DNA of 61,857 nucleotides, filler included, from Hausera hauseri (Eukaryota): NCBI GenBank assembly GCA_046269625.1. It is 11 parts of 11 records of this genome, joined end to end, with 100 filler letters (N's around TTAATTAATTAA, not from the genome) between each part and the next. Parts side by side here need not be neighbours in the genome. Positions count along the whole stretch, not along the records: positions 28,239 to 35,230 come from JBJURY010045554.1; 10 more parts are not named here. One strand, written 5' to 3'. A model generated the notes under the pieces. That model ran no database searches and was not told the DNA's origin. It was given only the letters and a program-made list of their open reading frames with translations. Shown one piece after another: positions 9,940 through 50,727 of the stretch; within the stretch, counting starts at the first letter, position 1; every line of letters begins with the position of its first letter. Position numbers and translations under genes: made by a program.

Positions 9940-11414
9940 GCATCCGCATTCTAAAAGTTACTTCTCCCTTAGGCTCGTCGTCGTCTTCCAATAGTCCTTT
10001 GATTAGATTTGTTCCAGTTAGCTTGCTAGGGACAGCGGTAATGCCTCCATTGAGTAGGCTTATCCAGTCCGTACTGCTACGTCGAAACATAGGTTCACCT
10101 AGGCTCGTTTTGCATTCTTTCAGTATCGTTGGTTCAGTTGAGTTTGCCAATAATACTCTAGTGAGTGGCATTGCTAGTCCGGGCATGTTCTCATAGATGA
10201 CTGGTAATTCTTGCACGCATCTTTTCTCTTCTACATTGATTGGCACGTCTCTTTTTTCGCATTCGTAAGTTAGTAGAACTTCTTCAGTAACTCGTCCGAA
10301 AACACCTTCTTTCATTGGTATAATTGGAGATGCCAATTCTGGGTTGACATAAATTAAGGCCAACTTGGTTCTCACGACTTCAGTATCTAATCTGCAGTCA
10401 TTTGTTATCATTTTATGATACAGCTCTGCTATTCCGGTTTGTCCTTTATAATAGAAATAGTCGTCTCGATTTTTGAGGTAATCATCAATCCGTATGTCTT
10501 GCGTTTTCAAATCATACGCTTTCATGTTAATTTCAGTTTCTTCTACGAAAAATGCCTCATAATTTGTGGCATACATTACTACATCGCAACATGTTAACAT
10601 ATCTTTTCTAATAAACTTCAACCCATGCGTGTCCGATATCAGTATCGTCGGTGTGAAATGTTCTATCACGTCTTTCCTTGATCTCGTATTAATGTGTAAT
10701 TTATTTGTATAGCGTTTCCTAGTTGTCTCAGAATTTCAACTCTTTGATTTTAATGAATTTGCACTCCCTTTTGGAAGGTGGACTCCATACAACAACTGAA
10801 CTTCGGAACGTACAAGCGCCATCTTGTATGTGACATTTTTGATTTTCAGTAAATAGTTTGGTAACACTATGAAACATTGCTTTTAGGGGTCTTAACTCGG
10901 TTTTGTAAAAATCTACAACTACTGTTCCTCCTTCTTTTTCTTTTCCAGTATCGTATTCGGCTCCGACACAATAGCCCATGTGCATATTTAGTTTTCCGAT
11001 TTCCACTTTGTAATCTATAATGATCTTTCCTTCTTTGGCTTCTAACTCCATGCCATTCCAAACCATTTTGCCAGTCAGCCGGGCTCCTAAACAGTGTTGT
11101 CTATCCACATTCATTGGGATTAATGGTGTGGTTGGTTTGATAACTGAAGAATGTCCGTGCATATTACCACAATGAAAAACGCTGCGAAATCTCCGTATCA
11201 TACATGCCGTTGCATCCATTGCAATTAATTCCCGTTGTTGATATAATATATATCATTTTTCTATCGTCTCAAGCTTATGATGTCTTGCATATTCACATGT
11301 TTCTAAATCCATTAAGGAATATTTTTGACCTACCTTGAATTTATCACAGTCGTATGCGGTAACTGCTCCTATTTGCTTCACTAACATCATTATTGTCAGT
11401 AGGTTGATTAACTA
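9940..11414 (-). pseudogene. env: Envelope glycoprotein, chuvirus G / class III fusogen-like (A1)
   Basis: Hydrophobic signal (*LINLLTIMMLVKQIG) then AVTAYDC..YSLMDLETC, FHCG, and LALIYVNPELASP..GVFGRVTEEVLLTYEC..CVQELPV..PLTRVL. ORFs 10728-11219 and 9884-10669. Confidence 0.8.
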
Positions 11415-14400
11415 ATTCGATCCGTTTTCCTTGTTCAAGGAGATGTTCCGCATCATGTCTTCTAGTTTGTTAGTCCCTCTTGCATCTTCCTCTTTTTCAA
11501 ATAATTTAGACCCTTTTATTTCTTTGGGTACCATTTTTGCAGCTTTTTTAGCTAATCCAATTGTCTTCCCAAATTCGTTTTCTAGTAGTGGGTTGGTCCT
11601 TACTGCTAGGTATATCAAGACTTTCCTTAATTCTTCCGTCGTATTATCTATCATAATTCTATCAATTACTGTTTCGTCAGGAAGGGTACTTTTCGATAAT
11701 TTAAATCTTGGAGTCTTCATCGTCCGGACTATATTATATATCAGTCTTTTTTTCTCGGTTAATATGTCACCTTCAAGTCCGGTATAGTTGACTATCCTAA
11801 TTAAGTCTCTCATTAGCTCAATTAGTTCTTCGTTGTCTGAACTCGGTGTCGGCATTGATAATTGTCTCAATTCTCTAATCAAGTCTGCATTATAATCAAT
11901 TTCTTTTATTTTCCTTGGTCTTCCAACAGTTCGTTTCGGTTTTACTGGTGGTAAAGTTTCGCTTAACGGAACTAAATTTATATCGTATTGAGGTTTGTTG
12001 TCATCGGTCTGTAAGTATTCAAAGTACATCACTGCATCTTGAATCCCCATAATTTTTATAACACAATGTTCTGTATGCGCATTTCTTATGGCTTCGTCCT
12101 TGGTTTGCTCACTAGTAATTATTGCTATTATTCGATTCACTTCGAGTGGTATAATCCCTACGTCTATTAAGAATTCCAGCTCATCTAGTATTTTACCCCT
12201 AAAATAGAGTTGATAATTAACTCCTTCCCTACCGATCTTATCCATTATCCGCTGCTTAATGTCTAAAACGATGGTATAGGTAGTGCATTCGAATTCCTCG
12301 TCATTCATTTCTTCAGACCATACTTTAACTTTAATTTCTGCTTCCGGTTTATTTTTCAATAGTTTAGCGTACTCTTTTATTAAGCGCTTCGGCGCGGCGC
12401 TGTATGCGATGTTCTCGCTGGACAACTTAGTCAAGGTTGACATCAATTTCCTTAACTTATCTTCGCTTATGTTTATTTTCAACACACTGCTTAGTTCCTT
12501 TTCAGCTAGTGTGGGATCAAGCAACATTTGTACGTCAAATTTCGACTTATGTGTATCAGTGGGTAACTCGTAAATTTGTATTGGAGTTTTTTGACTTTGC
12601 TCGGTTAGACCTTGGAGATATTCGTCCCATTCGGCTTCATTTTCTGCGTCAGGTAACTCGTAATTCAGTAGCGCTGCATGTCCGACCTGAACTCTTTCGC
12701 GTAATTTTCTTATCTGCGGTTCTAAATCCGGTATTCTAAATCCGTCTCCATTTCCGCATGCTTGTTGTATCAGTGTTATTAATCGGCACATTTCTTCTAG
12801 TTGCATCAAGGCTTTCTTTCGATAACTAGTTATTTCTGCGATTATATCTCTTTGCCATCTCTGTATAAATTCCGTTTTGTCGTTCATTTCGGATTCTGTA
12901 AGGAAATACTTATTCTTATAAACTTCTGTTTTTCTCAGTAATTCGTTTAGCTCGCATGCCTTTTCTCGGAGCGTAACCGGGTTTCTTTTACCAGACGTAT
13001 TTGATTTGTTAGTTGTTTGGCGATTACTTCGTCGATTTCTGCCATTTCTGTTAGTAATAAGATTAATTTGTGCATTTGATTCAATACTTCCACGTCTGGA
13101 TCTATTGCGTCCATTAACCTGCCTATGAACTTGGCTTTGTCAGCCGTCAGTTGAAGATCATTTCTAATCTCTTTTAATTCAGTGTGGCAGTGTAGGTCGA
13201 ACCCTGGTGTCCATTCTATTGGATTCTGTAAATGCTGTAGTGTCTGTGCCAGACAATCTGGTGGTCATTACATACTTCCAATGTTTCTATCTCTTGTACA
13301 GAGATTTCCTTTAGCGGTTTTTGTATTAGATTCTGTATTCCTCCCCAACGGATATTTACTAGGCTTTGCTGAAAATCACTTAGCTTGTTTCTTTTCTGTA
13401 GAAGTCCTTCTCATCTATCATACTATATATCTCTGTCAGCGTTGTTTGGTTTTGGTCTTCGCTCATAAATTCAAGCTCTCGAAATGATTCGAATTTAATT
13501 TGTAATTTCGCTTCATCTTCCATTGTACCGATGTCTAGTAGCATTTCCTCCAATTGATGTCTCATTATAGGCTCAACCACAGCAAACTTCTTTAGTCGTT
13601 CGTTAATCACTTCGGCTATAGAAGGTAACAAGTCTACCCACTTTTTCCAATTGTTTACATATTACTGGTTTAGCGTATATAGTTTCGTCTAAAGCATCAA
13701 AAGCTTCTTTTAGTTCATGATCTGGTCCTCGTATAAATTCTAGGATTTGTTTCATGTAGTTGAATTCTTCTTTATACTCACCTAATTCGAGAAGACAGGC
13801 ACGTATTATTCTCTGTACTTCTACCTTTTCGAGGTGAACTATACCGATCTTTAAGTCGTTAATTTTGGCTCCTATTCCATCTTCTCTTCCAATACGTGTT
13901 TTTAAACCTGGGTATTTTCGAGGTTTATCCTTTATTAAGCTGCACATTTCTAATAAAAAGAAAATATTGATTTGGTCTATACTCAGTATCTCTAGGTCGG
14001 TATCAGTCAGTTCGTATACTGGCTTGTTATGGAGGTGAGAAATTATTCCTTCTTCCATCCCATGCATCATTCCTTCTAAATTACGTCTGATGCGTTTTAA
14101 TTTTGGGTTGTTAATAAGTGTATTCTACAACCCTTCTGCCTGATTAACCTGATAAAGAAACGATCCATTTTTATTCCACCATATTTTCGTAAAATCCATC
14201 CCACTCTTTGTCCACAGTTCTAATATATTCTGCCAATTTTCTGTCAAGTCTTGCGTTATTGCTTGCAGTTCGTAAGGTGTGCCTTCTTCTTTCTTCTGAG
14301 AACCGGGTTTAAGATTTTTATATAGCTTTTCTATAAATTGTTGCTCCTTTCCAGAGATGTCCACTTGTTTACTCATCTGTTAAAGTTTCTGTAAGCTTTC

Positions 14401-15170
14401 CTGTAGCCTTTCAGGATCATCCAGTGTATCTCTTATTTTAGTTAGTTCGCTTGAATTTTTCCAAGATTTTAATTTTCCCGAACTTTATAGATTTTTCCGC
14501 TTTTGAGTTCTCTCCGCTAGCTGGTAACGGACATATTTCATTAATTTCATCAATATTAGGAATATTTGTTGTTTCCGGAATGTCTTGAGTTATTACAGGA
14601 GTGTTTAACTCTGTTTCATCTCTTAAAGTGATAGTGAAATCTTCCTCCTTTTCTACATCCTTTTTAATAGGTGATCGTGAACGAGTTCTCGATCTTCTCC
14701 TAAGAGCGGGGCTTCTACCTCTATTCTTGGTTATCTTGAGTATTAATGGCCAAATAAATTCACTCTCAACTTCGTCCGTTGTTTTGTCTTTATTAACGCG
14801 ACATGATTTCGGTATCTGCATCCAAGTCTATACTTGAAGACGTAGTCGGTTTTTCTTCTTTCTCCTCTTTCGTTGCTTGATTTAGATTTTTCTTCCTGGT
14901 CATGTTAGTAGGTGCTATCGCCTTTTCGTATTCCGTTTTTGGTTCTCTTAACCCGTGATAAACTTCCATTTGGTGCATCTTTTCTTCGTATTCCTTTCTG
15001 GCCTTGATAACTTGTGAATTATTAAAATCACCCTAATTTTTCACATATCTTCGTAGATCTTGCATCTCGGTAATCATGCTTATATCACCACGTTTTCCAT
15101 AGATTCCTTCCAAATTATCTCTTGTCGTGCTAGCTTTACTAGTTTCTGCAAATAATACAATCCGTGGGTT
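11415..15170 (-). pseudogene. Region X (A1): helical/coiled-coil protein with RS tract, ubiquitin-like domain and AT-hook, in the position normally held by pol
   Basis: ORFs 14793-14978, 14438-14821, 14125-14376, 13603-14070, 13380-13631 and 11412-12887 align with A2 and A3; no protease D(S/T)G, RT YxDD or integrase DDE motif seen. Confidence 0.8.
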
Positions 15171-16410
15171 AGGGCATAACCTAGTTATGTGTCTTTCCTT
15201 ACCACATAAATAAAAAATTAGGTTTCTGTCTCGTCCAATCCTTTGTCGTCCATCTTCATTCACTGGTGATTTGGGTCTACCTATTGTTTTATTTTGAGCT
15301 TGCTTATCAATTCCTTTATTTTTATTTTCAAAACTCCGATTATCTATATACCGGTTCTTATTGCCTCGGTCATTATTTAGGTTTCTATCCAGATTATAAC
15401 CGGTTTTGTTATAAGAATTATAAGTATTCCGATTATCATTCCTATTATCATACCTCGTGCTGCAATTAGAGACATTTGGAGCTATATCCTCATAGCCTCG
15501 GTCCTTATTATTATCGTTAAATTTTCTGTTGTTTTGGTTTCTATCACGATTGTCACGATCATTATTTCGGTCGTATCTATCGCTTTGTTTAGCGTATCTA
15601 TCTAGTGCCATTTCCAAGTTTTGTGCTATTTGTAATGCAGTCTCGAAGTTGTTTGGTCGAGCCAAAATTAGTTGTTTAACTAAATCTCTGGACATATACC
15701 GTTTATTAACTGCGTTGTCATCATGACATCTAAATCTGGTGGGCTCGCCTTTTCTGCCGCTTTGTGTTCTGCGTCTGTCTTTGCCTTTGCCGCATTGGCT
15801 ATCCTTAACGTACTCACGTAACTATTAGCAAGTTTCTTTAGTGCGAATGCAAACTGAGTGACCGACTCACCTTTTTGTTGCGTTCTATTCTGAAAGGCCA
15901 TAAGCTTCTGTTGTGGCGTCACCGTCGGCAATAGTTTACGATTTAGGGCTCCTACTACAGAGGACCATGATTTCTTCTCATCATTAGTAAGTTCACTATA
16001 GGCATCTGCAGCCAAATTTTTCAAGTATAATGACAGTCGTTTAATCATAACCTCGGGCGCAAGATTGACACCTTCTGCGTGCAATTTATAGGTTCTTAAA
16101 AAGTCGTTTAACCAGTCAGGGTCACTGTCGTATGCCGGTAAATTCAAGGAATCGAACGTAAATATGTCGAGTTTTTGAGATATGGCTGGGTTCTCTGCTG
16201 TCATCTTTATTTTTTTCGGTTTGTCTACTTTAATTCTGGGAGGAGTTTTAATTGTTTAACGGAGGTTAATTCAGTGTCAGATAAACAGTGCTTATCGATT
16301 ATCTTATCTTCAGTATAGAGCTTATTTCGTGTTTCTCTTTGATTAAGTTTCTCTTTACCGTTTACTAATAAATTTTGATACGAATTGAACCTATCAATAT
16401 TTGCTCTCAA
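15171..16410 (-). pseudogene. gag: Ty3/Gypsy-type Gag (A1)
   Basis: LPAYDSDPD..LYLKNLAADAYSEL..FQNRTQQKGESVTQFAFALKKLA (major-homology-region-like), N/D/R-rich linker, degenerate knuckle FYLCGKERHITRLC. Confidence 0.85.
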
Positions 16411-16562: not shown

Positions 16563-16580
16563 GTCCTGCTAGGGTCGCCA
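16563..16580 (-). promoter_or_regulatory. Primer-binding site, tRNA-Arg-like
   Basis: Minus strand reads TGTAACA-TATT-TGGCGACCCTAGCAGGAC, complementary to a tRNA-Arg-like 3' end (..GTCCTGC..GGTCGCCA). Confidence 0.75.
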
Positions 16581-16584
16581 AATA

Positions 16585-17274
16585 TGTTACAGTTGCGGTG
16601 GCCCTTACCTTCTCCCACTATAACAATATTTTCTCTAGAATTAATTTGCTGTATCAGCAGGTTAGGACTATTCGTTCTCGAATAGTCTGCTTGTGCCTTA
16701 AGATTTTAACTAAATTTATGTAGTGATGCTGGTACTGCTTGCGATAAAACTGCGTGTCTCAATTTGTAATATCTCAACTTAACTATGCGATTTTAAGTAG
16801 ATTTTGCTCTTATGGTAGTCAAATCGTCTTTAAGAGACGATGAAAAATTATATAGGGATTTTAACAAACAATCAACTAAAAGTGGCCTTTATTCGATACA
16901 CCAATTAACACAATGATTCCTCTCGACAAGAACAACTCACGAATAATAACGTCAATAGTAAGTTGCAATCTTCTGACTCTAAGGTCAGTTTCGACGTTGA
17001 TATCGCTTTATTGGGAATTCAGCTTGTCCGACTCTAAGTCGTACACTAATTTTGTCTGTCTATTTCTTTTTGTCGTCTGCTTATATACTAGCAGTTTCTT
17101 CAATACCCTATTTATTTTCAATTTGAATTCAATTTCTTAAGCTAATATAATATTTACGTATAACTAAAATCCAATTTCTTAGATTATAGCACTGCTTCGA
17201 CAGTTTATTTGTTTTCCAAATGGTCAAATTTTCTGTTTAATCTAATTCTACTAGAATAACAGTTCTACTGTACA
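16585..17274 (-). repeat. Putative 5' LTR of A1 (about 690 bp)
   Basis: Imperfect terminal inverted repeats (minus strand TGTACAGTAG ... CAACTGTAACA), TATATAA near 17085, AATAAA near 17010 and 16890, ends 4 nt before the PBS. No second LTR is available to confirm the far boundary. Confidence 0.55.
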
Positions 17275-22956: not shown

Positions 22957-23547
22957 NNNNNNNNNNNNNNNNNNNNNNNNNNNNNNNNNNNNNNNNNNNN
23001 TTAATTAATTAANNNNNNNNNNNNNNNNNNNNNNNNNNNNNNNNNNNNNNNNNNNNTACACTCGAGGATGATCGATTGCAAAATGGATAAGAGTGATAAT
23101 ATATTATATATTTTGAGTAGGTTCAGCAGTGTTGTGCCAAGTTGCAGGGGAAAACGAAGTCGAATGGCAAATTGAACTGCCACATTCAATTATAATTGCT
23201 GTTTAGTGTAGAAGGCAGCATAATTATATTGTAATACTTATTGCATCCATAAAATAAATGAGTTTACATAAATCGACAAAATTCATGTAGTAAAATTCAA
23301 GTCACATGACAAAAACATTTAAACGAAAATGTCACATGACAAATCAAGAATCGAATAAATTTATTTGACTCCAATTCAGTTAATAAATAATCAGTTCGTG
23401 AAAGCAAAAGATTATTGGCCATGTTTAACCATAGAAAAGCAATAAATACTTGTATTCCATAAAATATAATCCAATATAAGATGCTAAGCAGCTAGGAATA
23501 AATCAAGTCAATTAAATAAAATTGATTAGGAATACAAAATTGCAATA

Positions 23548-27242: not shown

Positions 27243-28533
27243 TTTTATAAATTTTATATTTATTTATGATTACGTCTGAATTTGGATATTTTCCATATTT
27301 CTTTAGTGTCAACATGGCAGCAATGTTTTATCATTTTTGTTTGTATTTATTAAATGTTTTGTCGTTTTTGTCTTCACACCGATAAATTTATCGGTAAATT
27401 TTATCGATGTTCGTAAGTACATTCTCGAATGAAATATCGAATATGAAAATAATTTCATAAAAATACAAATTTGCAATTGCATACACCGAAATCAAAATAC
27501 CCGAATAAAGTTTTGATGAGGAATTGTCCAATGAAAATATTCTGAAAATTTTTAACGAAATTTTCATCATGCGTGTTAAAAAACTGAAAATATTGCGAAA
27601 TTATCAAAAATTGGACCAGAACAAATTTCTGGTGAAGTTTATCAAAATTGCGCATAGAATATTCGATAAAAGTTGAAATGTGAATTTTTAATCATTTCAC
27701 TGGTATGACATACAATTTACGTCCAATGGCAGTGAATAGTCTGGTCACGGACTTATAACTTCGAATTTCGATAACAACCGCGAGAGGATTATCAGTTTTG
27801 TTTCAGCATGTCCCAGTTAAGAAGACAGTCCATTTGCGGAAGGGACATCCAAGCATGAGATAGCGAAATTCCAGTGGATATTTGGCAAGGCTCTTGAAAT
27901 ATGGAAAACAGTTGTTTAGAGGAATCTCAATCAAGATAAAGGTACGTTCATTGTATTATAGATAAAGGTAACAATTTTGAAAAAGAACATTTTATTCACC
28001 ATGTACTACTAAATTTGTCCATTGAAAATTTTTTGTCAATTTTTTCGTTCTAAACGATAATATTCCTGTATCCAATCATTTGACGATATTTATAGGCACG
28101 TAAAATATCACTTTTTCATTTGTTTATTTAAATAACTGNNNNNNNNNNNNNNNNNNNNNNNNNNNNNNNNNNNNNNNNNNNNTTAATTAATTAANNNNNN
28201 NNNNNNNNNNNNNNNNNNNNNNNNNNNNNNNNNNNNNNTGGTTGATCTTGACTGTATATTACGAGCCATACTCGGTGAGTACAATATCCTATAATCATCT
28301 TCCGCTCGTCGTCGATTAATGATCTGCATTTTCTTTAATCATCCGTATTGTTTTGTTCTTTCATAAGGGTCCTCATAACTAAAGGGTTTCCGACAGAGCT
28401 CAGATTTGTGTGACATCATATATATTCTATCGCGATCCTCATATATTGGAGCTGTTGGTGGAATGATAGGCAAGGGTGCCTTAATTACTGAATACATCTT
28501 GTGTCTATTTTATCTGAGAATCGCTTCTCCTCC

Positions 28534-30505
28534 CTAAGGCTCGTCTTCATCGGAGTTATCTCTTTGCGTTACTATTTTTTTAGTTTTTCGTTTTAATAGA
28601 AATGTGGGCCTTGCTCGTCGTTTATAATTATGATAGCCGACGTGTCGTTTAACGTCATTCTTCCACTGATTTTCTTCGTATGCTTTAAGCCTTTTGCCGA
28701 ACGGGGTTATAATTTCAGTTGAAATCTTGCATGAAAATCCTGTTAACGTGAATATTTTGTACCTGTTTATAACCGCTTGGATTACCGCCTTTACTAGTTG
28801 TACCAAGAAATAGATTTCTAAAAATTCAGATGCAACTTGTCCAAAGATTAGAAATCTTCCCCATATTTTGTAGAGTATTTCTGTGGTTACCCGTTGATAA
28901 TGGTTCGCACGAAGCAGGGACTCCCATTTAGCCTGGTAACGGGTATCATCTACTACTGATGTCATAGCTCGGTTTAACTCGTGTTCGCTGGCGTGGAAAA
29001 GCGAGAAATTGTCGAAAGGCTTTGATTTCTTTGGGCCTGTAAATGCCCTTTTGGGATGTATCCTGAAACTTGTCATGAGTAATTCCTTTTGCTAAATTAG
29101 TTCCAGTTAGTTTTTTAGGAAAGGTAGTGATATCTCCATTAGGTAAGCTAACCCAATCCGTTTCGCTGCACCTAAACATGGGTTCACCTATGCTTGCCTT
29201 ACAATCCTTTAAGATTGTAGGTTGTGTTGCGTTATCTAACAATACTCTAGTGAGGGAAATGGCTAACTGTGGAGTATTCTGGTAGATTACAGGAAGCTCT
29301 TGTATACATCGTTTTTCTTCGACATTAATTGGTACGTCTCTTTTCTCGCACTCATATGTCAGTAGAACTTCGCCAGTGACTCGGCCAAAGATTCCTTCTC
29401 TCATGGGAATAATCGGTGAGGCTAACTCAGGATTGGCGTAAATAAGGGCTCATTTTGTCCTCGTAATCTCCATATCTAATTTACAATAATTAGTTATTAT
29501 TTTATGGTATAGCTCGGATATTTGGACTTGTCCTTTGTAGTAGAAATAATCATCTCGGTTTTTCAGTTAATTCTCAATTAGAATGTCCTGCGTTTCTAAG
29601 TTATGTGTTTTCGCGTTTATCTCCGTTTCTGTGACGAAGAACGCTTCATAGTTAGTGGTGAACATTATTACTTCGCAACGTGAAATCATTTCTTTTTTTA
29701 TGAATTTCAATCCATGTTGATCAGAGATCAATATCGTAGGTGTATGATGCTCCGATACGTTTTCACGTGCTCTTAAACTGATATCAGATTTGTCTACGTA
29801 TCTTTTCCCGGTAGTTTTATTAAACTTCAATTCCTTAATCTTGAAAAAATTACATCTCTTTCCAGCGGGCGGTTCCCATATGATGACAGAACTTCTGAAA
29901 GCACAGGTTCCGTCCTGTACGTGACATTTTTGATTCTCGGTATACAGCTTAGTGACGCTATGGAACATCACTTTCTGGACTCGCATTTTCGATTCGTAAA
30001 AGTCTACTACTACTACGTTTGCTTTTAATCCTTTTCCGGTATCATATTCTGCTCCACTACAGTGCCCGTTATGCATATCTAGCCTACCAACTACTATCTT
30101 GTATGCTCTGATTATCTTTCCGGGCTGCATTTCTAGTTCCATACTATCCCATTTCAGTCTTCCGATTTCTCACGCCTGCTTGCAATTTTGTCTTTTCAAA
30201 TTTATTGGAATTGGAGGGGTTGTTGGTTTGATTACTGAGGAATGTCCATGCATTAATCCATAGTGGAAAATACTACGAAATCGTCTCTGCATACACTACA
30301 TGCCGTCCAAGGATATCAGTTCTTGTTGTTGATATAGAAAATAACTCTTCTCCTTTGTTTCCAATTTATGTGGTCTGGCATCTTCACATGCTTCTAAGTC
30401 CATTAATGAATATTTTTGTCCAAGCTTAAATCTATTGCGGTCGTAGATGGTGGCAGCGCCCATTTGTTTTATCAGCATCATTATGATGAGCAAACTAATT
30501 AACCA
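28534..30505 (-). pseudogene. env: Envelope glycoprotein, chuvirus G-like (A2), most complete copy
   Basis: Signal WLISLLIIMMLIKQMGA, YSLMDLEAC, GIFGRVTGEVLLTYEC..CIQELPV, C-terminal membrane region IWGRFLIFGQVASEFLEIYFLVQLVKAVIQAVIN and a basic tail. Confidence 0.82.
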
Positions 30506-33500
30506 ATTAGATTTATTCTTCCGGTTGTTATTATCCGCTATTGTTAAATTCCGTATGATATCTCTGAGTCCATTATTATTACGGTTCTTTTTGTCTTCTT
30601 CCTTGTCAAACAATTTTGGCCAATTTACTTCACATGAAAGCTTCCTATCTGCTTTTCGTGCCAAGCTTGTAGCTCGATTTAGTTCATCCTCTCAATTAGG
30701 ATTCGTCTTAATAGCCAAGTATAATAATATTTTTCTTAGCTCTTCTGTCGTATTCTCTACCATAATTTTCTCGACTACTGCGTCGTCAGTTAGGCTACAT
30801 ATTGACAGTTTAAAAAGCGAACTTCTTATTGTTCTAGCTACGTTAAATATAGTCTTTTCTTTCTCATCTAATGTACCTCCCCGAAGACTTGAATAATTTA
30901 CGATACGTATTAAATTTTTCATTAATTCGTTTAACTCCTCATTGTCTGTGCTAAAGGTAGAAATCGACATTTGTCTCAGTTCTCTAATTAATTCTCCGTT
31001 ATAGTCAACTTCTTTCCGGGCCTTCCTAGGCCTGCCGACAGGGCGTTTTGGCCTTGACACATTGGTCGTATTTCCGCTCCAAGGCACTAAATTTTTATCG
31101 CATTGTTCCTTGTCTTCATCTGTCTGTAAATACTCGAAAAACATTGCCGCATCTCGTACTCCCATGATTTTCCCTACGCATTGTTCTGTTTTAGCCTTTC
31201 GCGTGGCTTCTTCTTTTGTCTGTTCACTGGCTATTATTACTACTATCCGATTTGTTTCGTCGGGGATGATTCCGTCATCTATTAACTGTTCTAAATCGTC
31301 AAGTATTCTTCCTCTATAGTAAAATCTGTAATTAAGCTCATTTGTTCCGCCGTTGTTTAGTAATTATTCTCTTACGTCCTTTACGTAGGAATAAATAGTT
31401 AGCTCACATTCCTTTTCTTCTATCCACTCGGATGATACCATTACTTTCATCGTTATCTCAGGTTTATCCCTCAAGATTTTCTCATACTTCTTCATCAACA
31501 GTTTCGGCACCGTGCTGTAAATTGTGCTTTCACTAGATAGTTTAGTCAAGGTCAGAATAAGTTGTCTTAGCTTATTTTCAGAAATATTTACGTTAATTAG
31601 TTCAGTCAATTCCTTTTCAGTTAGCACTGAGTCCAGGAGCATTTCTATGTTGAATTTGCTGTTCTGTGGATACATTTATATTTTATTTAAATTTACCGGA
31701 GTTACAGGATTTTCTGCCGTTATTGCTTCTAAATAAGCATCCCATTCTGGTTCATTCCCAATATCTGGGAGTCCATAGTCTACTAGAGCTGTGTTCGTCC
31801 TTTGCACATTTTCTCGAATTTCTCTTAATTTTGGTTGTATTTCTTTCATTTGTGTACTCCGTAAACCTATCCCGTTTCCACAGGCATACTGAAATATTTT
31901 CAGTAGTTCGCCTAATTCACTAGAATTGATGAATCCCTTCTGGTGATAGTCGGTTAGTTCGATAATAAAGTCTCTTTGCCAAGGCTGCACGAATTCTAGC
32001 TTATTTTTGATTTCTGATTCCGTAAAAGCGTATTTATTCCCGTAGGCCTCAAACTTTTTTGCCAGTTCGTCTAGCTTCGTTGCTCTTTATTTCGTTCTGA
32101 TGCACGTTTCTTCAACTTGTACTAATTTGAGCATCAATTGCCTCATCTTCTCATCATTAATCTCCACCATTTCTATCAATAAGTAGGCTGGCCCATACAT
32201 CTCATTTATAATTTTTGAGTCGGGATCCATTGCGTCCAGCAGTTTCTTAACGAATCTAGATTCCTCGACACTAAGACGTTGGTTGTTTCTTATTTTTGTC
32301 AATTCGGTGTGACAATTCTCATCTGTACCGGCCATCCATTCTAGGTGTTTATGCAAGAATTTTACTGCTTCTGTTAGGGCTACTCTATTTTCTTCACAAA
32401 TATCTAAAGTTTCGATGTCCTGGATTGAAATCTCGTTGATAGGTTTGTCCATTAAATGTTGGATTCCTTCTCGTCGGATGCTTCTTAACCTTGAGTAAAA
32501 ATTGCAAGTCATATTTCGCTTTTCTGTAAAGTTCGTTTCTTCGATCATTTTATAGATTTTTCCAATATTGTCATTTCTTGCTTCTTCTTCATAAAATTTA
32601 ATCGTCATAATGCTTCGAACAGTGTCCAGATGTCTATTTCTGCTTGTATGGTGTTTAAGTTACGTGCACCTTCTTCTAATTGTCTTTTTACAGATGGTTC
32701 ACTCTCTGGAAATTCTTTCTTATAGTCTTCTACTAACTTGCTTAACCTCGTTATTAGTTCAGACCATTCTGACAATTGATTGGCAACTATTGGCTTTGCG
32801 AGTATTGCTTTATCTAGCATTTTATATGCATCTTTTAACTCATCATCTGGACCTTTTATGAAATTCATGATTTGGATAACATAATTGAATTTATCCTTAT
32901 ATTCGTCGAATTCTCTGATACAAGCTTTTATTATATATTTGGTTTCTTCGTTAATCATAAACATGATTCGATTTCTTAAACTGTTGATCTGCGATCTTCT
33001 TTTATTCGCCAATTTAATGCAACTATCTAAGTCCGTATATCGTCTGGGTTCGGCGAAAGCAATTTTTATCATCTCCATTAAGGGAGGAATATCTATCGCG
33101 TCTATACCCAATATTGCTAAATCGTTATCTTTTCGAATACTAACCACTTTTTCTCTAAGCTGTTTGATCACTGCATTACGGATTTCATCCATTTTACGTT
33201 CTAAGTTACGGGCTACTCTCTTCAACTTGGGATTAGCCTCTAAGATAGATAATAGTGTTTGCGCTTCAGAGACTTTTACACCGATACTATCCTCATCTTT
33301 ACCCCATCCTTATGAAAATTCAACTCCACTTTTAATCCATGACTCTAATTCGTGGTTCCATTTGATCAACGTATCTCGCGGCACCTCTTCAGATTGTTTT
33401 AGCTCGATTGCTTCATCGAGCTTTCCTTCGCTGCATAATTTTAAACTCTTGTATAATTTCTCCGCACATTTTTGTTCTTTACCGGATATATCTGTTTGTT

Positions 33501-34299
33501 TACTGATCTGATTAAGCCTTTCTAAATGGCATCGGAGTATCTCTGGATCGTGTCATCTAATTCTTATTCTCTTTAATTCATCGGCATTCGTCCATGAACG
33601 TCGAACTTTCCATTTTCTCGCATCAAGATCGTTATTGTCGTCCGTTTCTTCCTCGGAAGCGGACAAATTTCATTGATTTAGTCATTAATGTTTATTATAT
33701 CTGGTGTTTCCAACGTTTCTAGGTTTTTTTTAGGCGTAACAGTCGTCTCTAAGGACGAGTGGTCTTTTAGGATAGCAGTATAGAAGTCTTCTTTTTCTTC
33801 CACGTGTTCTTTAATGGGAGATCTTGAGCGAGTCTTGGATTTTCTCTTAGGCGATGGGCTTTTACCTCTATTCTTCGTTATCTTGAGAACTAAATGACCA
33901 ATAAATTCACTTTTGATCTCATCTGTTGTTTCATCTGGGTTGTACTTTTCGGATTCTGCGTCTAAATCTACGTTTTGAGATGTCGTTGGTTTCTCTGACT
34001 AGGTTATTCCTTGGGGAATAGACTTTTTACGTGCCATATTAGCATTATTTGGTTCCAGTGTGTATTCTTCCTCAGTTTGTGGTTCTCTTAATCCGTGATA
34101 GACTTCCATTAGCCGTAATTTCTCTTCATATTCTTTTCTAGTCTTTGTGACTTGAGGATTAGCAGTTTCACCTAGATTCCTTACCGATCTACGTAGATCT
34201 TGCATTTCAAGGATCATGTTTATATTACCTCGTTTACCATAGATGACTAAGTTATTTTTAATCATACTTATTTTGTTCGGTTCAGTAAATGTGACGCTT
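30506..34299 (-). pseudogene. Region X (A2)
   Basis: ORFs 32605-33225, 32087-32608, 31676-31990, 31364-31675 and 30692-31165 are homologous to A1/A3; AT-hook RPVGRPRK present. Confidence 0.8.
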
Positions 34300-35230
34300 C
34301 TAGGATTTGGGCATGACCTGGCGATATGTCCTACCTTGCCACATGTAAAAAAATTAGATTCCCATTCCGGCAAATCCTTTGTCGGCCATCCTCATTCTCG
34401 GGTGATTTTGATCGGTTTGTATTCGTATTCTGGCTGTGATATTCTTCTGTTATCTTTGTCATATCTATTCTCTTTATATTTATTATTGAGTCGGTAACTA
34501 CCTTGGTTCCTGTCTGAATTGTAACTCAGTTTATTATACGAGTTATTTCTTTGATTCCTATTGTGAGCATTTTGATTTCTGTTATCAAAACCTCGGTTTT
34601 AGTTGTTATCATTAAGTCATCTGTTATCTTGATTCTCGTTTCTATTTCGGTTATTACGGTCGTTATTCCTTTCATATTTATCACCTGGCTGGGCATATCT
34701 TTTCAATGCCTTTTTTAAGTCTCGGGCTAATTGTAACGTCCTCTCAGAATTATCGGGTCTGATCAGAATTAACTGTTTAACTAGATCTTTTGACCATATG
34801 CCATTTATTAGCTGAGTTGTCATCATGACGTCTAAATCTGGTGGTGTTGCCTTTTCCGCGGCATCACGTTCTGCGTCTCTCTTAGCTTTTGCTACATTGG
34901 CTATCCTCAAGGTACTTACATAACTATTAGCGAGTTTCTTCAATGTAAATGCAAACTGGGTTACCTATTCACCCTTCTGTTGCACTCTGTTTTGAAATGC
35001 CATAAGTTTCTGTTGCGGCGTTACTGTTGGCAGTAATTTACGGTTTAATGCTCGTTCCAGGGAGGACCAGGATTTCTTTTTATCGTTGGTAAGCTCACTA
35101 TAAGCATCGGCAGCTAAATTCTTTAGATACAGTGATAAACATTTTATCGTTACTTCAGGAGTGAGACTAGCACCTTCCGCGTGCAACTTATAAGTTCTCA
35201 AAAAATTGTTCAGTCCGTCCGGATCACCAT
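34300..35230 (-). pseudogene. gag: Gypsy-type Gag (A2)
   Basis: LYLKNLAADAYSEL, FQNRVQQKGE, knuckle FTCGKVGHIARSC. Confidence 0.85.
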
Positions 35231-39999: not shown

Positions 40000-40628
40000 C
40001 ATATTACGACTGAGCTCCTAAAAGCACACGTTCCATCTTGTATATGACATTTCTGGTTCTCGGTATATAATTTTGTGACGCTATGGAACATCACTTTTTG
40101 TGATCGCATTTCTGCTTCATAGAAATCCACAACCACGACGTTCGATTCTAGTCCTTTTCCGGTATCGTATTCTGCTCCATTACAATGCCCGCTATGCATA
40201 TCCAGCCTCCCGGCTACTACTTTATATGCTCTGATTATTTTTTCGGGTTTCATCTCCAGTTGCATACTATCCCATTGTATCCTTCCGGTTTCCTTAGCTT
40301 GTTTGCAATGTTGACGCTCCAAATTCATCGGAATTAAAGGAGTGGTGGGCTATATTATGGAAGAGTGCCCATGTATTAGTCCACAGTGAAAAATACTGCG
40401 TGACCGTTTTAGCATGCACTCTATTCCATCTAACGACACCAATTCTTGTTGTTGATACAGGAAGTAATTTTTTTCTCGTGTTTCTAGTTTGTGCGGTCTC
40501 GCGTCCTCACAGGCTTCTAAGTCCATTAAGGAATATCTCTGTCCTAATTTAAACTTGTCACAATCATAGACGGTTACTGCACTTATGTGTTTTATTAGCA
40601 TCATCAATGTAAGTAAGCTAATTAGCCA
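40000..40628 (-). pseudogene. env: Envelope glycoprotein N-terminal part (A3)
   Basis: WLISLLTLMMLIKHISAVTVYDC..YSLMDLEAC..CMLKRSRSIFHCG, in the same ORF (40350-41540) as the end of region X. Confidence 0.82.
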
Positions 40629-43600
40629 ATTCGATTCGTTTTTTCGACCTCCAACGTCTGACACTGTCAGATTACGCAGCATATCATCGAGTTTATTACT
40701 GGTTCGTTTGTCCTCTTCCTTCTCAAATAGTCTTGCCCAATTTACTTCGCAAGGCATCTTTCTTGCTGCTTTCCGTGCTAAATTTATTGCTCGGTTAATT
40801 TCAGTTTCTCGGTTTGGGTTTATTTTGATGGCTAAGTACAGCAAGACTTTTCTCAATTCTTCATTCGTGTTCTCTACCATGATCTTTTCTATTACTGACT
40901 CATCGGTTAAGTTACTTTTTGATAGTTTGAAACGTGAACTTTTCATCATTTTGGCTGCCTCAAAAATTATCTTTTCTCTATCGTCTAATACATCTCCTCG
41001 AAGGCCGGAGTAATTTACAATTCGTATTAAATTCTTCATTAATTCACTTAATTTTTCGTTATCTGGGCTCAAAGTCGGAATCGACATCTGTCTTAATTCT
41101 CTCATTAATTCCCCGTTGTAGGCCACTTCTTCCCGCATTTTTCTAGGTCTACCTACTGGACGTTTTGATCTTGCGCCTTTCGGGGTTGCTTCGCTTAGCG
41201 GTACTAAATTTATGTCATATTGTTCCTTATTTTCGTCTGTTTGTAAATATTCGAAATATAATGCAGCGTCTCGGACTCCCATGATTTGTCCGACACATTG
41301 TTCTGCTTTAGCCTTACGTGTAGCTTCCTCTTTTGTCTGCTCGTTAGCTATTGTAACTACTATTCGGTTTGTTTCATCAGGAATAATCCCAACATCTATT
41401 AATTGTTCTAGGTCATCGAGTATTCTACCTCTAAAGTAAAATCTATAGTTTAACTCCTTCGTTCCACCATTGTTTGTTAGCCATTCTCTTACGTCCTTTA
41501 CGTAAGCATGTGTAGTCAACTTGCACTCTTTTTCGTCCATCTATTCGGATGACACCATAACTTTCATCGTCATCTCAGGTTTAGTCCTTAAGATTTTAGC
41601 ATACTCCCTTATCAAAAGTTTCGGCACCGTACTATAAATCGTATTTTCGTTGGATAATTTAGTTAAAGTTGGAACAAGTTGTCGTAGTTTATTCTCGGTA
41701 ATATTTACGTTAAGTAATTCCATCAAATTCTTTTCATTTAAAGCTGAATCTAGTATCATTTCCACATTAAATCTCTTGTCTTTGGTACCTGTTTCTGATT
41801 CGTTTAGCTGTATTGGAGTCGTGGGTTTTCCGGCAAGTATTTCGTCAAAGTAGGCATCCCATTCTGGTTCGTTTCCGACATCCGGAAGTCGGTAGTCCGC
41901 TAAAGCTGTATTGGTCCTTTGAACGTTTTCCCGAAATTCCCTTAACTTAGGTTGTATTTCTTTCATTTTCGTAGTTCGGAATCCTACTCCATTACCACAG
42001 GCATATTGAATCATCTTCAATAATTCACCGAATTCGTTAGAGTCGATTACCCCTTTTTGATGATAATCTGTTAATTCAAGAATCACATCCTTTTGCCATC
42101 TTTGTACAAATTCTCGTTTATTCCTAATTTCGGACTCGGTGAAAGCATATTTGTTTGGTAGACTTCAAGTTCTTTTGTTATTTCGTCTAACCTTATTGCT
42201 CTTTGCTTCGTTTTGATACATGTTTCTTCTACTTTCTGTATCTTGTGCATCAATTTCCTCATCTGCTCGTCACTGATTTCCGCCATTTCCGTCAATAAAT
42301 ATGCCAATTCATACATCTCATTTATAACCTTTGAATCAGGGTCCATCGCATCCGACAACTTCTTCACGAATTTGTGTTCCTGAAAACTAAAATGTGGGTC
42401 GTTTCCTATTTCTATCAACTTGGTGTGGAAATTCTGATCTGATCCGGCCATCCATTCTTGAGGTTGGTGTAGAAACCTTAGCGCATCCGTTAACATATCT
42501 CGGTATCCTGGACAAATGTCCAAGGTTTCCATGTCTTGTGCAGAAATTTCGTCGATTGGTTTCCCGATTAGGTATTGAATTCCTTCTAATCGAACAATCC
42601 TTAACTTCGAGTTTACCTCGTAGATCATATTCCGTTTCTCTGTAAAGTTCGTTTCTTCGATCAATTTATAGATTACCTCCATCGTTGATATTTCCCGTTC
42701 TCTTTCCATGAATTTTAGTTGTCGTAATGCTTCAAATTGAGTTCGGATATCTATTTCTATTCGCAACGTAGCTAAATTATGTGCACTTTCCTCTAGTTGC
42801 TTTTTCACCGTTGGATCGCTTTGCGGAAATTCCGCTTTTCGATCATCTGCTAATTTGGTTAGTTGGTTTACTAGCTCGGACCATTCCGACAATTGATTTG
42901 TTATTAGGGGTTTCGCCATTATAGCTTTATCTAGTATCTTATAGGCATATTTTAACTCATCGTCCGGTACTTTTAAGAAATTCATAACTCGTCCGATATA
43001 GCTAAATTCGTCCTTGTATTCGTCCAACTCTACGATACAAGCCTTTATTATATATTGAGTCTCCTCATAAATTGGGGACAGAATTCGGTTCCTCAAGCTA
43101 TAAATTTGTGCTCGCTTTTCGGTTTCTATCTTCAGCCGATTTTCCAAGTTTGTACCTTGTTTGGGCGTGGCAAATGCAATTTTTATCATTTCCATTCGGA
43201 AAGGAATATCCAACGGGTCTATACCCAATACTTCCAGGTCGATATTACTGCGATGGTTAACCGGTTTTTCCCTAAGTCGTTGGGTTATTGTGTATCGGAT
43301 TTCGTCCATCATACGTTCTAAATTACGGACTACTCTCTTCAGTTTTGAATTCTCCTCCAACGTTGATAATAACGTTTGAGCCTTGGCGGTTGTTACGTTT
43401 ATACCCTCTTTATTTTTACTCCATCCTTCTAAAATTCCCATCCCGCTCTTAGTCCACAATTCCAATTCATGTTTCCATCTAGATAATATTTCCGGGGACA
43501 CTTTTTCAGGTTGCCTCACATCGATTGCTTCAGCGAACTTCCCTTCGCTACGTAATTTCAAGCTTTTATGTAACTTCTCGGCGTACTGCTGCTCTTTTTC

Positions 43601-44430
43601 CGATATATCGACTTGTTCTGCAATCTGCTTGAGCTTCTCTAAATTCTGCTGTAATGCTTCGGGCTCTAAACAATAGATTCTCATTTTCTTTAATTTGTCG
43701 GAGTTTTTCATGAGAGTCGGATCTTCCTTTTTTTATTTGAAATTATCATTGTCGGCCGTTTCTTCCTCACTAGTGGGCAGTGGGCAAATCTCATTAATTT
43801 CCTCAATTAACTCTATTGGTTCCGCTATTTCAATAGGTGTGTATGGACCAACTTGTGGCGTATGTAGACTATGCTCCATGTCGTCTTTTTTTGACATTCG
43901 GGTTTCCCGTTTCTTCCGTTTTCTCTTTGCTTATCTGGGAGCGTAAACGACTTTTACGTTTGGTTTTTAGTAAAGGGCTACGACCTCTATTTTTCGTAAT
44001 CTTAAGTATTAATGGTTCCATAAATTCCCTTTCCGCTGTATCGTCCTCTACCCTCTTGACTGGAAGTTTGGGTTCTGCGTCTAGATCGATTTGCTTCGAT
44101 ATGCCTGGTTCATCTGGCGGCTTGTTACTTGTCGGAATATTCTTTTTCCGTATCATATCGCTTCACTTTAGTGCTATTTCATGTTCGTATTCCGACTCTG
44201 GTTCCACTAAACCATGATATACCTCTAACAATCTCAACTTGTCTCCATATTCTCTTCTGGCCATTAGAATTTGTGTGTTCGTAGTATCTGGTTGAGCATC
44301 CAAAAATTTTCTCAAATCCTGTATATCGATGATGGTGGCTGTATCTCCGCGAACGCCATACTTTGTTTCTAAGTTCTCGTTATTTCTAATCATACTTGTC
44401 TTATTTGGTTCAATAAATGAAACGCTACGC
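40629..44430 (-). pseudogene. Region X (A3), with ubiquitin-like domain and AT-hook
   Basis: 542-aa, 181-aa and 396-aa ORFs; YRFYFRGRILDDLEQLIDVGI; RPVGRPRK. Confidence 0.82.
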
Positions 44431-45797
44431 GGATTTGGACATGACCTTGAAATGTGTCCTTCTTTGCCGCAAGTAAAACAAATCAAATTCCCGTTCCTGC
44501 CGACTCTCTGTCGACCGTCTTCATTTTCTGGTGACTTAGGTGTATTTAAACTTTTATTAAACTAATTTGACAAACTTTGCATATTGTCGGCATTTCGTTT
44601 GTTGTCGTTACTTCGGTTATCACCGATTTGATTCGAGTACGTCGAACTTCTATAATTTCCTCTATTCCTATCCCAATTTGGGTCTGGCCTGTTCGTATAA
44701 TTATTACCTCTGTAGCTGTCATTATTATTCCTATACCCATAATTTCTGTTGCCCATAAATCGTCTGTCGTCTCGTCTTTCCTCTCTTCTGTCATTCTTTC
44801 CATGATTGTCATTGCGATTTCTATCATTACGGTCATTTCGCTCATTATTCCTATCGTTTCTGTCATTGTGTCTGGCGTATTTATTCAACGCCATTTCTAA
44901 ATCTTGGGCTAGCCGTAACGTCCCTTCAAAATTTTCAAGTCTAGCCAGAATTAATTGTTTAACTAAGTTACGTGACCGGATACCATTTATCAGTTGCGTC
45001 GTCATCATAACATCTAGATCTGGTGGTGAGACCTTCTCTGCGGCGTCACGTTCTGCCTCCGTCTTAGCTTTAGCTACATTGGCTATCCTTAGCGTACAAA
45101 TATAACTGTTCGCAAGCTTCTTCAACGCAAATGCGAACTGGGTTACCGATTCACCTTTTTGCTGTATTCGGTTCTGAAATGCCATGAGTATTTGTTGCGG
45201 TGTCACTGTCGGCAACAGTTTTCTATTTAGTGCTCCTACCAGGGAGGACCAAGATTTCTTCTCGTCATTAGAGAGTTCACTATAGGCATCGGCGACTAAA
45301 TTTTTCAAGTACAACGACAATCGTTTAATCATTAGTTCCGGAGTTAAACCAGCGCTTTCTGCATGCAATTTATAAGTCCTCAGAAATTCGTTGAGCCCAT
45401 CTGGGTCTCCGTCGTATGCCGGCAGGTTAAGAGAATCAAACGTGAAAATGTCCAGTTTCTGTGCTACTGGTGGATTATCTGCTGCCATATTATTTACTTT
45501 ATCTAACTCTATATTTGCTTTATTCACCTTAAGTTTTTCCCGTGGAGTTTTAAATTTGTTATCGTTTTTAACGTCGTCTAGTTTACTTCTATTCTCGGAA
45601 TTCGATCGTTTATCTACTTTTTCTGTTTCTCTATATATATTTCTACGTGTCTCACGTATAGGGGAATTATCTTTCAGTATATGGTTTAATCCTGGTCTAT
45701 CAATGATTGTTCTCGGTTACGTTTGTTTTACTTATCCTCGTTCAATGATCTTATATCCCGATAGATTTAAGTTTTCAATATGTGTTCAATTACTTGG
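44431..45797 (-). pseudogene. gag: Gypsy-type Gag (A3) with intact CCHC knuckle
   Basis: 321-aa ORF with FQNRIQQKGESVTQFAFALKKLA; after one in-frame stop, CFTCGKEGHISRSC. Confidence 0.88.
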
Positions 45798-47820: not shown

Positions 47821-47834
47821 TGGCGCCCCAACAA
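47821..47834 (+). promoter_or_regulatory. Primer-binding site, tRNA-Lys-like
   Basis: TATT-TGGCGCCCCAACA; same TATT spacer as A1; TGGCGCCC is the start of Lys-type PBSs. Confidence 0.6.
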
Positions 47835-48192
47835 ATCAAGGAAGGCGGATTTTACAAGCAGTTTATAAATTCATATGAATTTGGATTTTATCAAAGAAAT
47901 ATTTTATCAAAACGATATTATTTCATTCACTTCTTAGGCTATTCATTCGGCTTTAAAAAGAAAGCAGTATATGACACAGTATTAAACAAGCTTGATAGTA
48001 GACAGAGAGAGATTACAAAACAATTAACAAGATTTGAAAGGATTCCAGAAGATAAAATTGTAGTTTGGATTAAAGAATAATATTACTACATTAAAAATTT
48101 GGACTCGACAATCAGATAAGAAATTTACCAAATTATTTCCCGAGTTAGACGACAATATTCTTAATAAAATACTCTTATTAGAAAGAGCCAAA

Positions 48193-49145
48193 ATGTCAAC
48201 AGAAAGACAGACAACTGAAAAACGAACCTATACTATTGAGCATTTAGACATAAATGTAGAGAGATTCAACGGAAACCCAGAGAAATTGTTTTCCTTTTTC
48301 AAAAGTTACAAATCTCAAAGTGCAGCAAAAGGCCTTGATGAAAAGGAAATGATCAGAAGATTACCCTTATCATTAACAGATATAGCTGTCGATGCATACA
48401 ATGACCTCACAAATGATTCAAACAGCCTTTATCGATCGATTTTATCCCACATTGTCTCCACATCAACAGTTGATTAAACTTCAAAACAGGTATCAGTTAT
48501 ACGGTGAAAGTACGACCCAGTACGCTTACGCTCTAAGACAAATTGTGGCTCAATACGTCGAAGCAGTACGCTTAGAAGCTCTAAAGAAGAAAAACTGATG
48601 AAAAAGAATTAAAAACAGACATTTTGTTACTTACACAATTCCTAAATGGACTTAATCCTGACTTACGATATAAAGTGCAGGCTAAATATCGTAGCGATTT
48701 TGTTGACGCATTAAAAGCTCCTCAAATGATCGAGTCATTTACGCCTTTAAAAAGACCGAGAAATACAGATCGCAATTTCGACAATGAATCACGAAGAAGT
48801 GACAATCGACGAAATGAACGTTTCGAAAGTGATTATCGCTTTAATAACCGGCAGAATGACCGAAGAAATCGGGATAATATAGAAATAGATTACGATCGAG
48901 ATGATTACCGACGACGATATGATAAACCAGATTCAATGAATTTTACTGAGAAACAAACGAATGTAAAACAAGACAGTTATTGCCATACGAAAAGAGTAAC
49001 TCTCCTCCAACCGAACACAGAGTTCGATTTGCTCAAGAAACACCGTATCAAAAAGATGGACGACAAGAAATAACTAAAACAGGCAAAATGGTAACTTGTT
49101 ACCGATGTAATAAAATGGGACATTATGCTAGTTCATGCCAAGAGC
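48193..49145 (+). pseudogene. gag: Gypsy-type Gag (subfamily B)
   Basis: ERFNGNPEKL..EMIRRLPLSLTDIAVDAYNDL, LQNRYQLYGESTTQYAYALRQ, LLTQFLNGL, CYRCNKMGHYASSC. Confidence 0.85.
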
Positions 49146-50560
49146 CATCGAAATCAATGGAGAAAAAGTCTAGCGCTGCAATGCATAAAGTTAAAACTGA
49201 TGATACCACAGAGGATTTCTTGCAAAGAGTTTCTGAGTTGACCTCGGAAGAAAGAAACCTTACAGCTAGCGCTCTCAGAAAAATGGATTCAGATATTGAC
49301 CAAATTCTTAGACGATTCAATGTACATACAAGCAATAGTTTTTCAAAATATTACTGCCATGGCATATTTGATGATATAAATAAAAATGTACCCTTAGCTA
49401 AACCTGCTCAGGCTAAGGCCATTACTAAATTAATAATTATAGAAGCAAGAACAGAAGCAAAGAATAGGTTCATTCTCGGTGAACCACTACCAGAAGTTGA
49501 TGAATTCATGCTTGAATGTTTTCCAATAGATCCAAATGTGGCTGTATGTACACAGAATAAAGGATCTGCAAATAAGAAACCAGAAAAAAAGAAAAAGGAA
49601 TATAAATTTTCAGGCTATAAAATACCTAAGAAAAAACCAGAAAAAAACTGAAATCATCTATCACCAGTTGGGATATTAAATATGGACAAATTCATACAAA
49701 ACATGAAGTACCAAAAGAATTAATTCCATCCACCTCAAAACAAGAGGAACCACCAGTTACCAAACCGACAATTCAGGTTGAGAAAAAATACCAAGATGTA
49801 GCTAAAGAAACATTGAAGCAAATGCAACCAAAGATTAGAGAACAGATACAAAAAGATCTGGCGAAAACAAACCAAGGAAAAATCCCTAAAGGACTAGAGT
49901 TATCCAAGTTAATAAACACTTACATAGAAAAGGACTGCATAAGTAAAATGAATGAAAACGACAAAGAAAAATTGATCAAAGAAATTTATAGATTACGTGA
50001 AAACGACTTTGTACCCGAACCTAGATATCTATTAGAAGTTGAAAAACAAGAAAAGATTAATAAGCAAATAAGAAGTTAAGAAGTTAGAGAAATTTATTAT
50101 ATAGATATTGGAAAGGATTCGATCACTCCCCGATCTCCAAAATGGAAGAAATGAGTTAAGGAACAGCGGAAATTTATGAAGAATCTTAAGAAAAATTCAG
50201 TGGAAAACTTCACAATTGACGATATTGTACAATTAATATTAAAAAAGCCATCTCGCATAAATTTCGAAAAGGTGATATTGCTTCTAATATCTGAGACACC
50301 TAATGAAGCTAATTTAAAGGCCACAACTGATAAAATAATTCATGCTAGTAAAACGATAATTCCGCAATATGGAAAATGGAGTGACCTATTTCTACGCAAC
50401 GAAAACGAAAAATTACTCGAAACAACCAACAAATATAGAAAAAGCTATTCAAGAAATTACTTTAAATGCATCTCATGACGAGATTGTTCCCATTATTATG
50501 GAGAAAATGACTAGTCAATTACAAGAAGAAATTCAGAAAAGTGATGGTGTAAAGTCCAAT
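49146..50560 (+). pseudogene. Region X of subfamily B (about 470 codons)
   Basis: ORFs 48980-49651, 49813-50079, 50176-50478 and 50369-50668; distal part resembles the end of subfamily A region X. Confidence 0.65.
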
Positions 50561-50727
50561 GGAATATTTATGCAACTTATGTTACTTTTATTAGTGTTAT
50601 TTTCCAATTTTAAAAGGACCGGAACAATATTAGCTTATGATTGCAATCAAATATATGAAGGAAGTTAATACTCATTGATGGATCTTCAATCATGCCCGGA
50701 CGCTCCTCAGAGAAAATTAGAGACTCA
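50561..50727 (+). pseudogene. env: Envelope glycoprotein start (subfamily B)
   Basis: GIFMQLMLLLLVLFSNFKRTGTILAYDCNQIYEGS*YSLMDLQSCPDAPQRKLET versus A3 TVYDCDKFKLGQRYSLMDLEACEDARPHKLET. Confidence 0.8.

Follow-up and report, generated by a model that had tools for sequence, protein, structure and literature searches.

Envelope glycoproteins of the herpes simplex virus (HSV)/glycoprotein B (gB) type have been described on Ty3/gypsy elements across animals by Chary and Hayashi (PMC13524379), who, in the sections of that work drawn upon here, recovered 114 gypsy elements with a chuvirus-like BEL/Pao glycoprotein as bait and reported the gene order GAG-ENV-POL in Nematoda, Bryozoa and Platyhelminthes. 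The same source cites the nematode Metavirus of Sacco et al. 2022, in which an RNA-virus-like glycoprotein stands before pol. The Anakin elements, which are BEL/Pao elements of mosquitoes, carry a chuvirus glycoprotein (Dezordi et al. 2020; available parts of PMC7642597), gypsy fragments beside such glycoproteins have been noted with no clear capture (available parts of PMC10084718), and Troyka elements are described as devoid of env (PMC12440569, likewise in part). Here, we describe a relative of these elements in Hausera hauseri (GCA_046269625.1). The window, that is, the whole stretch of DNA analysed, comprises 61,857 nucleotides (nt), made up of 11 short contigs with N44-12 nt-N44 spacers between them; it is not a single locus, and positions count along the whole stretch. 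The feature under study, called copy B, belongs to contig 28239-35230 (JBJURY010045554.1) and reads on the minus strand. We read it, with a probability of roughly 0.85, as a recently inactivated Ty3/gypsy long terminal repeat (LTR) retroelement of the GAG-ENV-POL kind (an HSV/gB-type errantivirus), probably from a flatworm.

The envelope protein (Env) of copy B is predicted to be a class III fusogen like chuvirus G and herpes gB. Pfam family PF24664 matches above its curated cut-off (27 bits), not only here but also in two related copies, A and C. The AlphaFold model, with a predicted local distance difference test score (pLDDT) of 92.1, has a gB-like fold with a long central helix and beta-rich domains, and its best fold matches are a chu-related virus G (template modelling (TM) score 0.71) and herpes gB. 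Copy B keeps 12 of the 13 nearly invariant cysteine columns, and hydropathy reveals both a signal segment and a C-terminal membrane anchor. An earlier note on this DNA had proposed a chuvirus-like class III glycoprotein; the Pfam match, the cysteine pattern and the structural matches, all of the best of which are class III, uphold that proposal. The motif series on which the note had drawn is also real: all eight patterns, when loosened (SLMDL..C, FH.G, L...NPE, G.FGRVTGEVL, YEC, C.QELPV, LTRVL and W..F..FG), occur within 28534-30505 on the minus strand, far above chance, as 200 mononucleotide shuffles gave at most two (mean 0.36). Two further details need amendment, since copy B reads YDR and FHYG in place of YD(C) and FHCG, whose exact forms occur only in copies A and C. 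Similarly, the 'signal' is indeed a hydrophobic stretch (from 30502, Kyte-Doolittle (KD) hydropathy 1.98) but is internal rather than N-terminal: it lacks its own start codon, the long upstream reading frame continues into it, and the same feature is present in copies A, C and D.

The closest relatives of this Env are retroelement proteins. An exhaustive HMMER search returned 379 Env relatives, 17 of them at E <1e-30, and the nearest are polyproteins encoding Gag, Env, protease, reverse transcriptase (RT) and RNase H as well as integrase in a single open reading frame (ORF), matched at E 5e-70 to 3e-34 with about 30% identity, as compared with 16-20% for chu-like viral G and about 10% for gB. 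Protease and/or RT follow Env in the same protein in 11 of the 14 long top matches (RT in five), and the remaining three terminate within Env or at its end. A BEL/Pao domain was found in none of these 14, and three of the five pol-bearing relatives checked have a GPY/F-type integrase motif. In a FastTree phylogeny of 97 of 106 rows (nine short rows, including copies A and C and P0017, were left out), the window Env falls inside a 17-row clade of Gag-Env-Pol relatives with support of 100, apart from a row carrying the BEL/Pao marker DUF5641 (P0133). As the tree holds no named viruses, it cannot give the direction of capture. A word-based search for longer Env relatives passed none of 1,922 candidates, a blank that reflects its limited sensitivity, since the exhaustive search found 379; comparison with PDB sequences gave chance matches only, and comparison with phage genomes no match. 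Several relatives (P0003, P0006, P0007, P0009, P0014 and P0018) have two or three tandem aspartyl-protease-like domains after Env in the same polyprotein, and P0003 and P0004 extend several hundred residues beyond integrase, with a hydrophobic segment at the end.

Four of the 11 contigs carry this Gag-Env type of element, and the four copies, A to D, represent four related families in each of which gag and env are colinear. Copies A (contig 9940-17470) and C (contig 40000-45797) share 66-76% DNA identity with copy B in a self-comparison; copy D is more distant and lies on the plus strand of contig 45898-50727, its env start matching alignment A1 with a probability of 96.6%. Amino acid identity of copy B to copies A and C is 86-87% in the capsid region, and B and C are 57-68% identical in the accessory region between gag and env, with synonymous sites near saturation. 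Judged by its sequence, the Gag is of the Ty3/gypsy type and not of the BEL/Pao type, as the earlier note had also held: there are weak Retrotrans_gag and dArc matches (copy C capsid to dArc2, E 0.019), a CCHC knuckle and no BEL/Pao domain. The sequence TGGCG[AC]CC, resembling a primer-binding site (PBS), occurs once per strand in the window, before the gag of copy A and before that of copy D; in copy A it lies 376 nt before the gag Met, directly following a TGTAACA end, and agrees at 10 of 12 bases with the 3' end of the Arg-CCG tRNA listed in supplement 1 of PMC13524379. The contig of copy B begins inside gag.

Copy B is dead. Its reading frame is broken by stops and frame changes throughout; within env there are in-frame stops at 30298, 30172, 29569 and 29452 and, judging from the boundaries of the Pfam matches, a frame change near 28973. 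Full-length Env could thus not be made from this copy. We considered programmed frameshifting from gag into the accessory region and rejected it, because each copy has its shifts at different places. As to the host, a fragment of CARM1/PRMT4 at 45850-46464 (minus strand), about 1.4 kb from the PBS-like site of copy D, branches, in a tree with 27 named references, as the sister of trematodes and cestodes together (SH-aLRT 93). This suggests, from sequence, a flatworm outside trematodes and cestodes, in keeping with the published range of GAG-ENV-POL elements.

Several points weigh against this assignment. The Env fold model depends on aligned sequences of intact relatives, and the Env phylogeny is a FastTree tree only, of rows chosen by our own query and without named viruses. 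The Gag matches to Pfam (E 0.0025-0.1) and to PDB (E 0.019) are weak, no second LTR or LTR pair was seen in the window contigs, and the host call comes from one 186-amino-acid fragment, with support <95, on the contig of copy D alone. None of the four contigs holds pol. After the W..F..FG motif, copy B continues for 208 codons to the contig end, with a stop at 28536 and no protease match, although a protease motif appears within 130-204 residues in six of the seven relatives in which the distance could be measured (11 were examined). These observations would fit a non-autonomous gag-accessory-env element that lacks pol and is mobilised in trans by a different gypsy element, a reading that we consider unlikely. 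The contig end cuts env in three cases and lies 295 nt after it in the fourth, so that pol would lie past the breaks; the seventh measurable relative needs 370 residues to reach its protease motif; protease or RT follows Env in most long relatives, as described above; and the stops are scattered through copy B. By analogy with the relatives, the window family would have a pol. The contigs of copies A to D are all broken in or just after env. A gypsy pol fragment at 21065-23008 is unlikely to be the pol of this env family, given its 25-35% identity to the relatives' pol as compared with 40-55% among the relatives.

A second alternative is that a Gypsy lineage captured a chuvirus glycoprotein independently, as put forward in the earlier note, and comparatively recently. 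The closest viral folds are indeed those of chu-related glycoproteins, and GAG-ENV-POL elements are not monophyletic in pol, at least in the sections of PMC13524379 used here, so that several origins are possible. However, the Env is closer to retroelement polyproteins than to chu-like G and is nested in their clade, the three sibling families are saturated at silent sites, and the association has already been published. We therefore abandon the idea of a novel capture as very improbable. Finally, a BEL/Pao element of the Anakin kind, or a chuvirus glycoprotein standing alone as an endogenous viral element beside an unrelated gag, is largely refuted by colinearity and by the tree and deserves next to no credence: the Pfam family is common to BEL/Pao-linked glycoproteins such as P0133 and a BEL/Pao fragment lies elsewhere in the window, but gag and env are colinear in all four families, P0133 belongs to another clade, the contigs of copies A to D hold no BEL/Pao domain (DUF5641, Peptidase_A17), and no viral polymerase or nucleoprotein family was found among 49 ORFs scanned.

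Table 1. Features of copy B and of the related copies (positions along the window).
Feature	Positions	Strand	Remarks
Gag capsid region	34698..35228	-	Retrotrans_gag weak, E 0.047; contig begins inside capsid
Nucleocapsid CCHC zinc knuckle	34311..34343	-	zf-CCHC E 7.8e-5, above cut-off
Long, mostly helical accessory region	31658..34310	-	Basic RS-rich stretch 33816-33830; several stops, copy-specific frame changes
Helical domain travelling with the ubiquitin-like domain in distant relatives	31457..31657	-	
Ubiquitin-like (beta-grasp) domain	31232..31453	-	Stop at 31366 in copy B
AT-hook-like motif (GRPR core)	31022..31045	-	Pfam AT_hook E 0.15 only, copies B and C
Helical domain directly before Env signal	30641..30943	-	Helices in copy A model
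Internal signal-anchor of Env	30449..30505	-	KD 1.98 over 19 amino acids; in frame with accessory region upstream
Env ectodomain	28973..30448	-	PF24664 50.5 bits vs cut-off 27; four in-frame stops
SLMDLEAC	30409	-	Copy B Env motif
LIYANPE	29446	-	Copy B Env motif
GIFGRVTGEVL	29395	-	Copy B Env motif
YEC	29356	-	Copy B Env motif
CIQELPV	29308	-	Copy B Env motif
LTRVL	29254	-	Copy B Env motif
Env C-terminal part, second frame	28534..28974	-	PF24664 48.3 bits; BLAST to relatives E 3e-18
W..F..FG membrane-proximal motif	28863	-	Within Env C-terminal part
Transmembrane helix	from 28824	-	Hydropathy KD 1.85; basic cytoplasmic tail, then stop 28536
Contig remainder after Env	28239..28533	-	No protease or other pol match; N spacer at 28139-28238
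Copy A	9940..16204	-	gag Met 16204; accessory region as in copy B; contig end cuts env
Copy A putative 5' LTR end (TGTAACA), then PBS from 16580	16563..16596	-	
Copy C	40000..45488	-	gag Met 45488; 1,620 codons to Env signal; contig end cuts env
Copy D	47821..50727	+	PBS-like site 47821, gag, zinc knuckle, shorter linker, env start

What appears to set the retroelement apart from described ones is the accessory region (Table 1). A profile built from relatives only detects the helical domain that accompanies the ubiquitin-like domain in copies A, B and C (E 8e-11 to 2e-9; hhalign 96.5%), and the helical-plus-ubiquitin-like module is shared by these copies and at least four distant relatives. 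The ubiquitin-like domain has the beta-grasp fold; a C-terminal di-glycine after its last strand is absent in copies A, B and C, and for that reason the domain would act as a binding module rather than as a conjugated tag. The linker of copy D gave no match to it. An identification of the helix before this domain as TFIIS-N-like, proposed by eye, found no support. The longer upstream part of the accessory region matches no Pfam family, a word-based search with the linker profile returned one of 7,998 candidates, which already belonged to the alignment, and ESM Atlas gave no usable match with the linker of a relative. The same gag-env slot holds a long region in P0019 (residues 330-900) and, in P0013 (residues 110-290), what we take by eye to look like a DEDDh exonuclease, with no Pfam match. 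Downstream of the env stop of copy B, in the frame of the Env tail, a PPTAP..YE stretch (28430-28470, minus strand) presumably resembles a late-domain motif.

In the window copies, the helical domain that directly precedes the Env signal stands where the relatives have a Bcl-2-like domain. In P0005, P0007, P0017 and, more weakly, P0019, this domain resembles the BH1-BH2 part of Bcl-xL, which is also its best PDB match (E ~0.01); Pfam Bcl-2 is matched in three of nine rows of relatives (best E 3.3e-5), P0005 scoring 20.1 bits, below the cut-off of 31.4. The Bcl-2-like identity is thus moderately supported, by sequence comparison, for the relatives. In the window copies, Bcl-2 homology was detected neither by Pfam nor by the relatives-only profile or hhalign (5%), and a mixed profile gave Bax at E 2.1 and Bcl-xL at E 2.6, which is no detection. 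The Bcl-2 fold is absent from the fold lists of the window copies, lists that are filled by matches to the ubiquitin-like domain, and the domain of copies A and C has no Pfam or ESM Atlas match. It is possible, if rather doubtful, that these elements form a clade with a variable host-modulating cassette of the sort that complex viruses carry, made up of the helical-plus-ubiquitin-like module, the AT-hook and a Bcl-2-like domain before the signal-anchor that has diverged in the window copies.

The following scheme may be proposed for the intact element. One long frame would encode Gag, an accessory region of ~1,270 residues, Env and then Pol; the order from gag to env is observed, the copy-specific frameshifts and the intact relatives point to a single ancestral frame, and the relatives likewise point to Pol. 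The internal signal-anchor would send the Env ectodomain into the endoplasmic reticulum, where signal peptidase may free Env, and the C-terminal membrane helix would return the chain to the cytosol, in which protease, RT, RNase H and integrase would come next. The element's protease would then release capsid, nucleocapsid and enzymes. While the hydrophobic segments are observed, the topology and cleavage of the polyprotein are our reading of them. Env, as a class III fusogen, could let particles enter neighbouring or germ-line cells, with trimer formation, fusion and infectivity as expected from its family. The accessory region would be cytosolic and held at the membrane by the signal-anchor. 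Its ubiquitin-like domain, whose fold and conservation are observed, would most likely bind ubiquitin or the proteasome machinery, and the Bcl-2-like domain of the relatives would have the topology of tail-anchored Bcl-2 proteins.

The element resembles the GAG-ENV-POL errantiviruses, as far as PMC13524379 describes them, in its gypsy-type gag, the class III Env after gag, the putative LTR end and PBS-like sites, the probable flatworm host and an ectodomain between two membrane segments. It differs in that copy B is decayed, pol is unseen and the accessory region contains a ubiquitin-like domain; 'ubiquitin' and 'Bcl' do not occur in the main text and seven supplements of that work, figures aside and long cells in part. 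The non-canonical nematode endogenous retroviruses of Sacco et al. 2022 differ in host, which here is probably not a nematode. With Anakin (PMC7642597, in the parts used) it shares the glycoprotein family on an LTR retroelement but not the BEL/Pao affiliation or the mosquito host, as here the Gag is gypsy-type, Env would come before pol and its clade is separate from the row with DUF5641. The class III fold and the arrangement of cysteines are shared with Jingchuvirales/Monjiviricetes glycoproteins (PF24664) and herpesvirus gB; unlike these, the window Env forms part of a retroelement polyprotein, and no viral polymerase or nucleoprotein lies nearby. Among the accessory domains of LTR retrotransposons are the chromodomain, DEDDy exonuclease, GDSL esterase, dUTPase and DNA methylase (PMC5408684, PMC6338049), and the present region is similarly an extra, non-essential acquisition of a retroelement polyprotein. 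'Ubiquitin' or 'Bcl' is absent from the text of these two papers, as are 'Bcl' and 'ubiquitin-like' from PMC10309623. A literature survey by titles and abstract starts, with subscription papers, Repbase and figures outside its scope, found nothing relevant on retrotransposons with Bcl-2 or ubiquitin-like cargo. Gypsy elements with a chuvirus-like class III Env had already been described; in the light of the texts covered, the novelty lies in the accessory cassette.

The other contigs are of diverse nature. Contig 35331-39899 consists entirely of a 60/120-nt satellite-like repeat with internal inversions, and its GC content (0.455) and observed/expected (o/e) CpG ratio (0.42) are unlike those of most other contigs. 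A nearly complete L1/Tx1-like long interspersed element at 51250-55967 (minus strand; ORF1, endonuclease-like part, RT, zf-RVT) has a CpG o/e of 0.52, and on this ground its contig possibly comes from a second, methylated genome such as that of a vertebrate host. The window also contains a BEL/Pao fragment (Peptidase_A17) with a gypsy pol fragment (RNase H, integrase) at 17571-22956, a host sterol reductase fragment of the ERG4/ERG24 family at 26003-26692 (plus strand, E 1e-33), and ORFs of 353 and ~267 amino acids with no Pfam family match at 23530-24591 (plus strand) and 4617-5420 (minus strand). No tRNA genes were found in it.

Env-bearing gypsy elements are usually described with gag, pol and env only. 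The window contributes decayed members that probably come from a flatworm group for which intact ones were not listed, and a ubiquitin-like module that is kept across lineages whose Env proteins are only about 30% identical. If the cassette is real, the Bcl-2-like domain would be cytosolic after signal peptidase cleavage, with a C-terminal anchor, and the element could block apoptosis where it replicates; such an LTR retrotransposon would itself encode modulators of cell death and of the ubiquitin pathway. Through the ubiquitin-like module and the relatives' Bcl-2-like domain, such elements would manipulate protein turnover and cell death, which would offer a concrete handle on their persistence and cell-to-cell spread outside insects.
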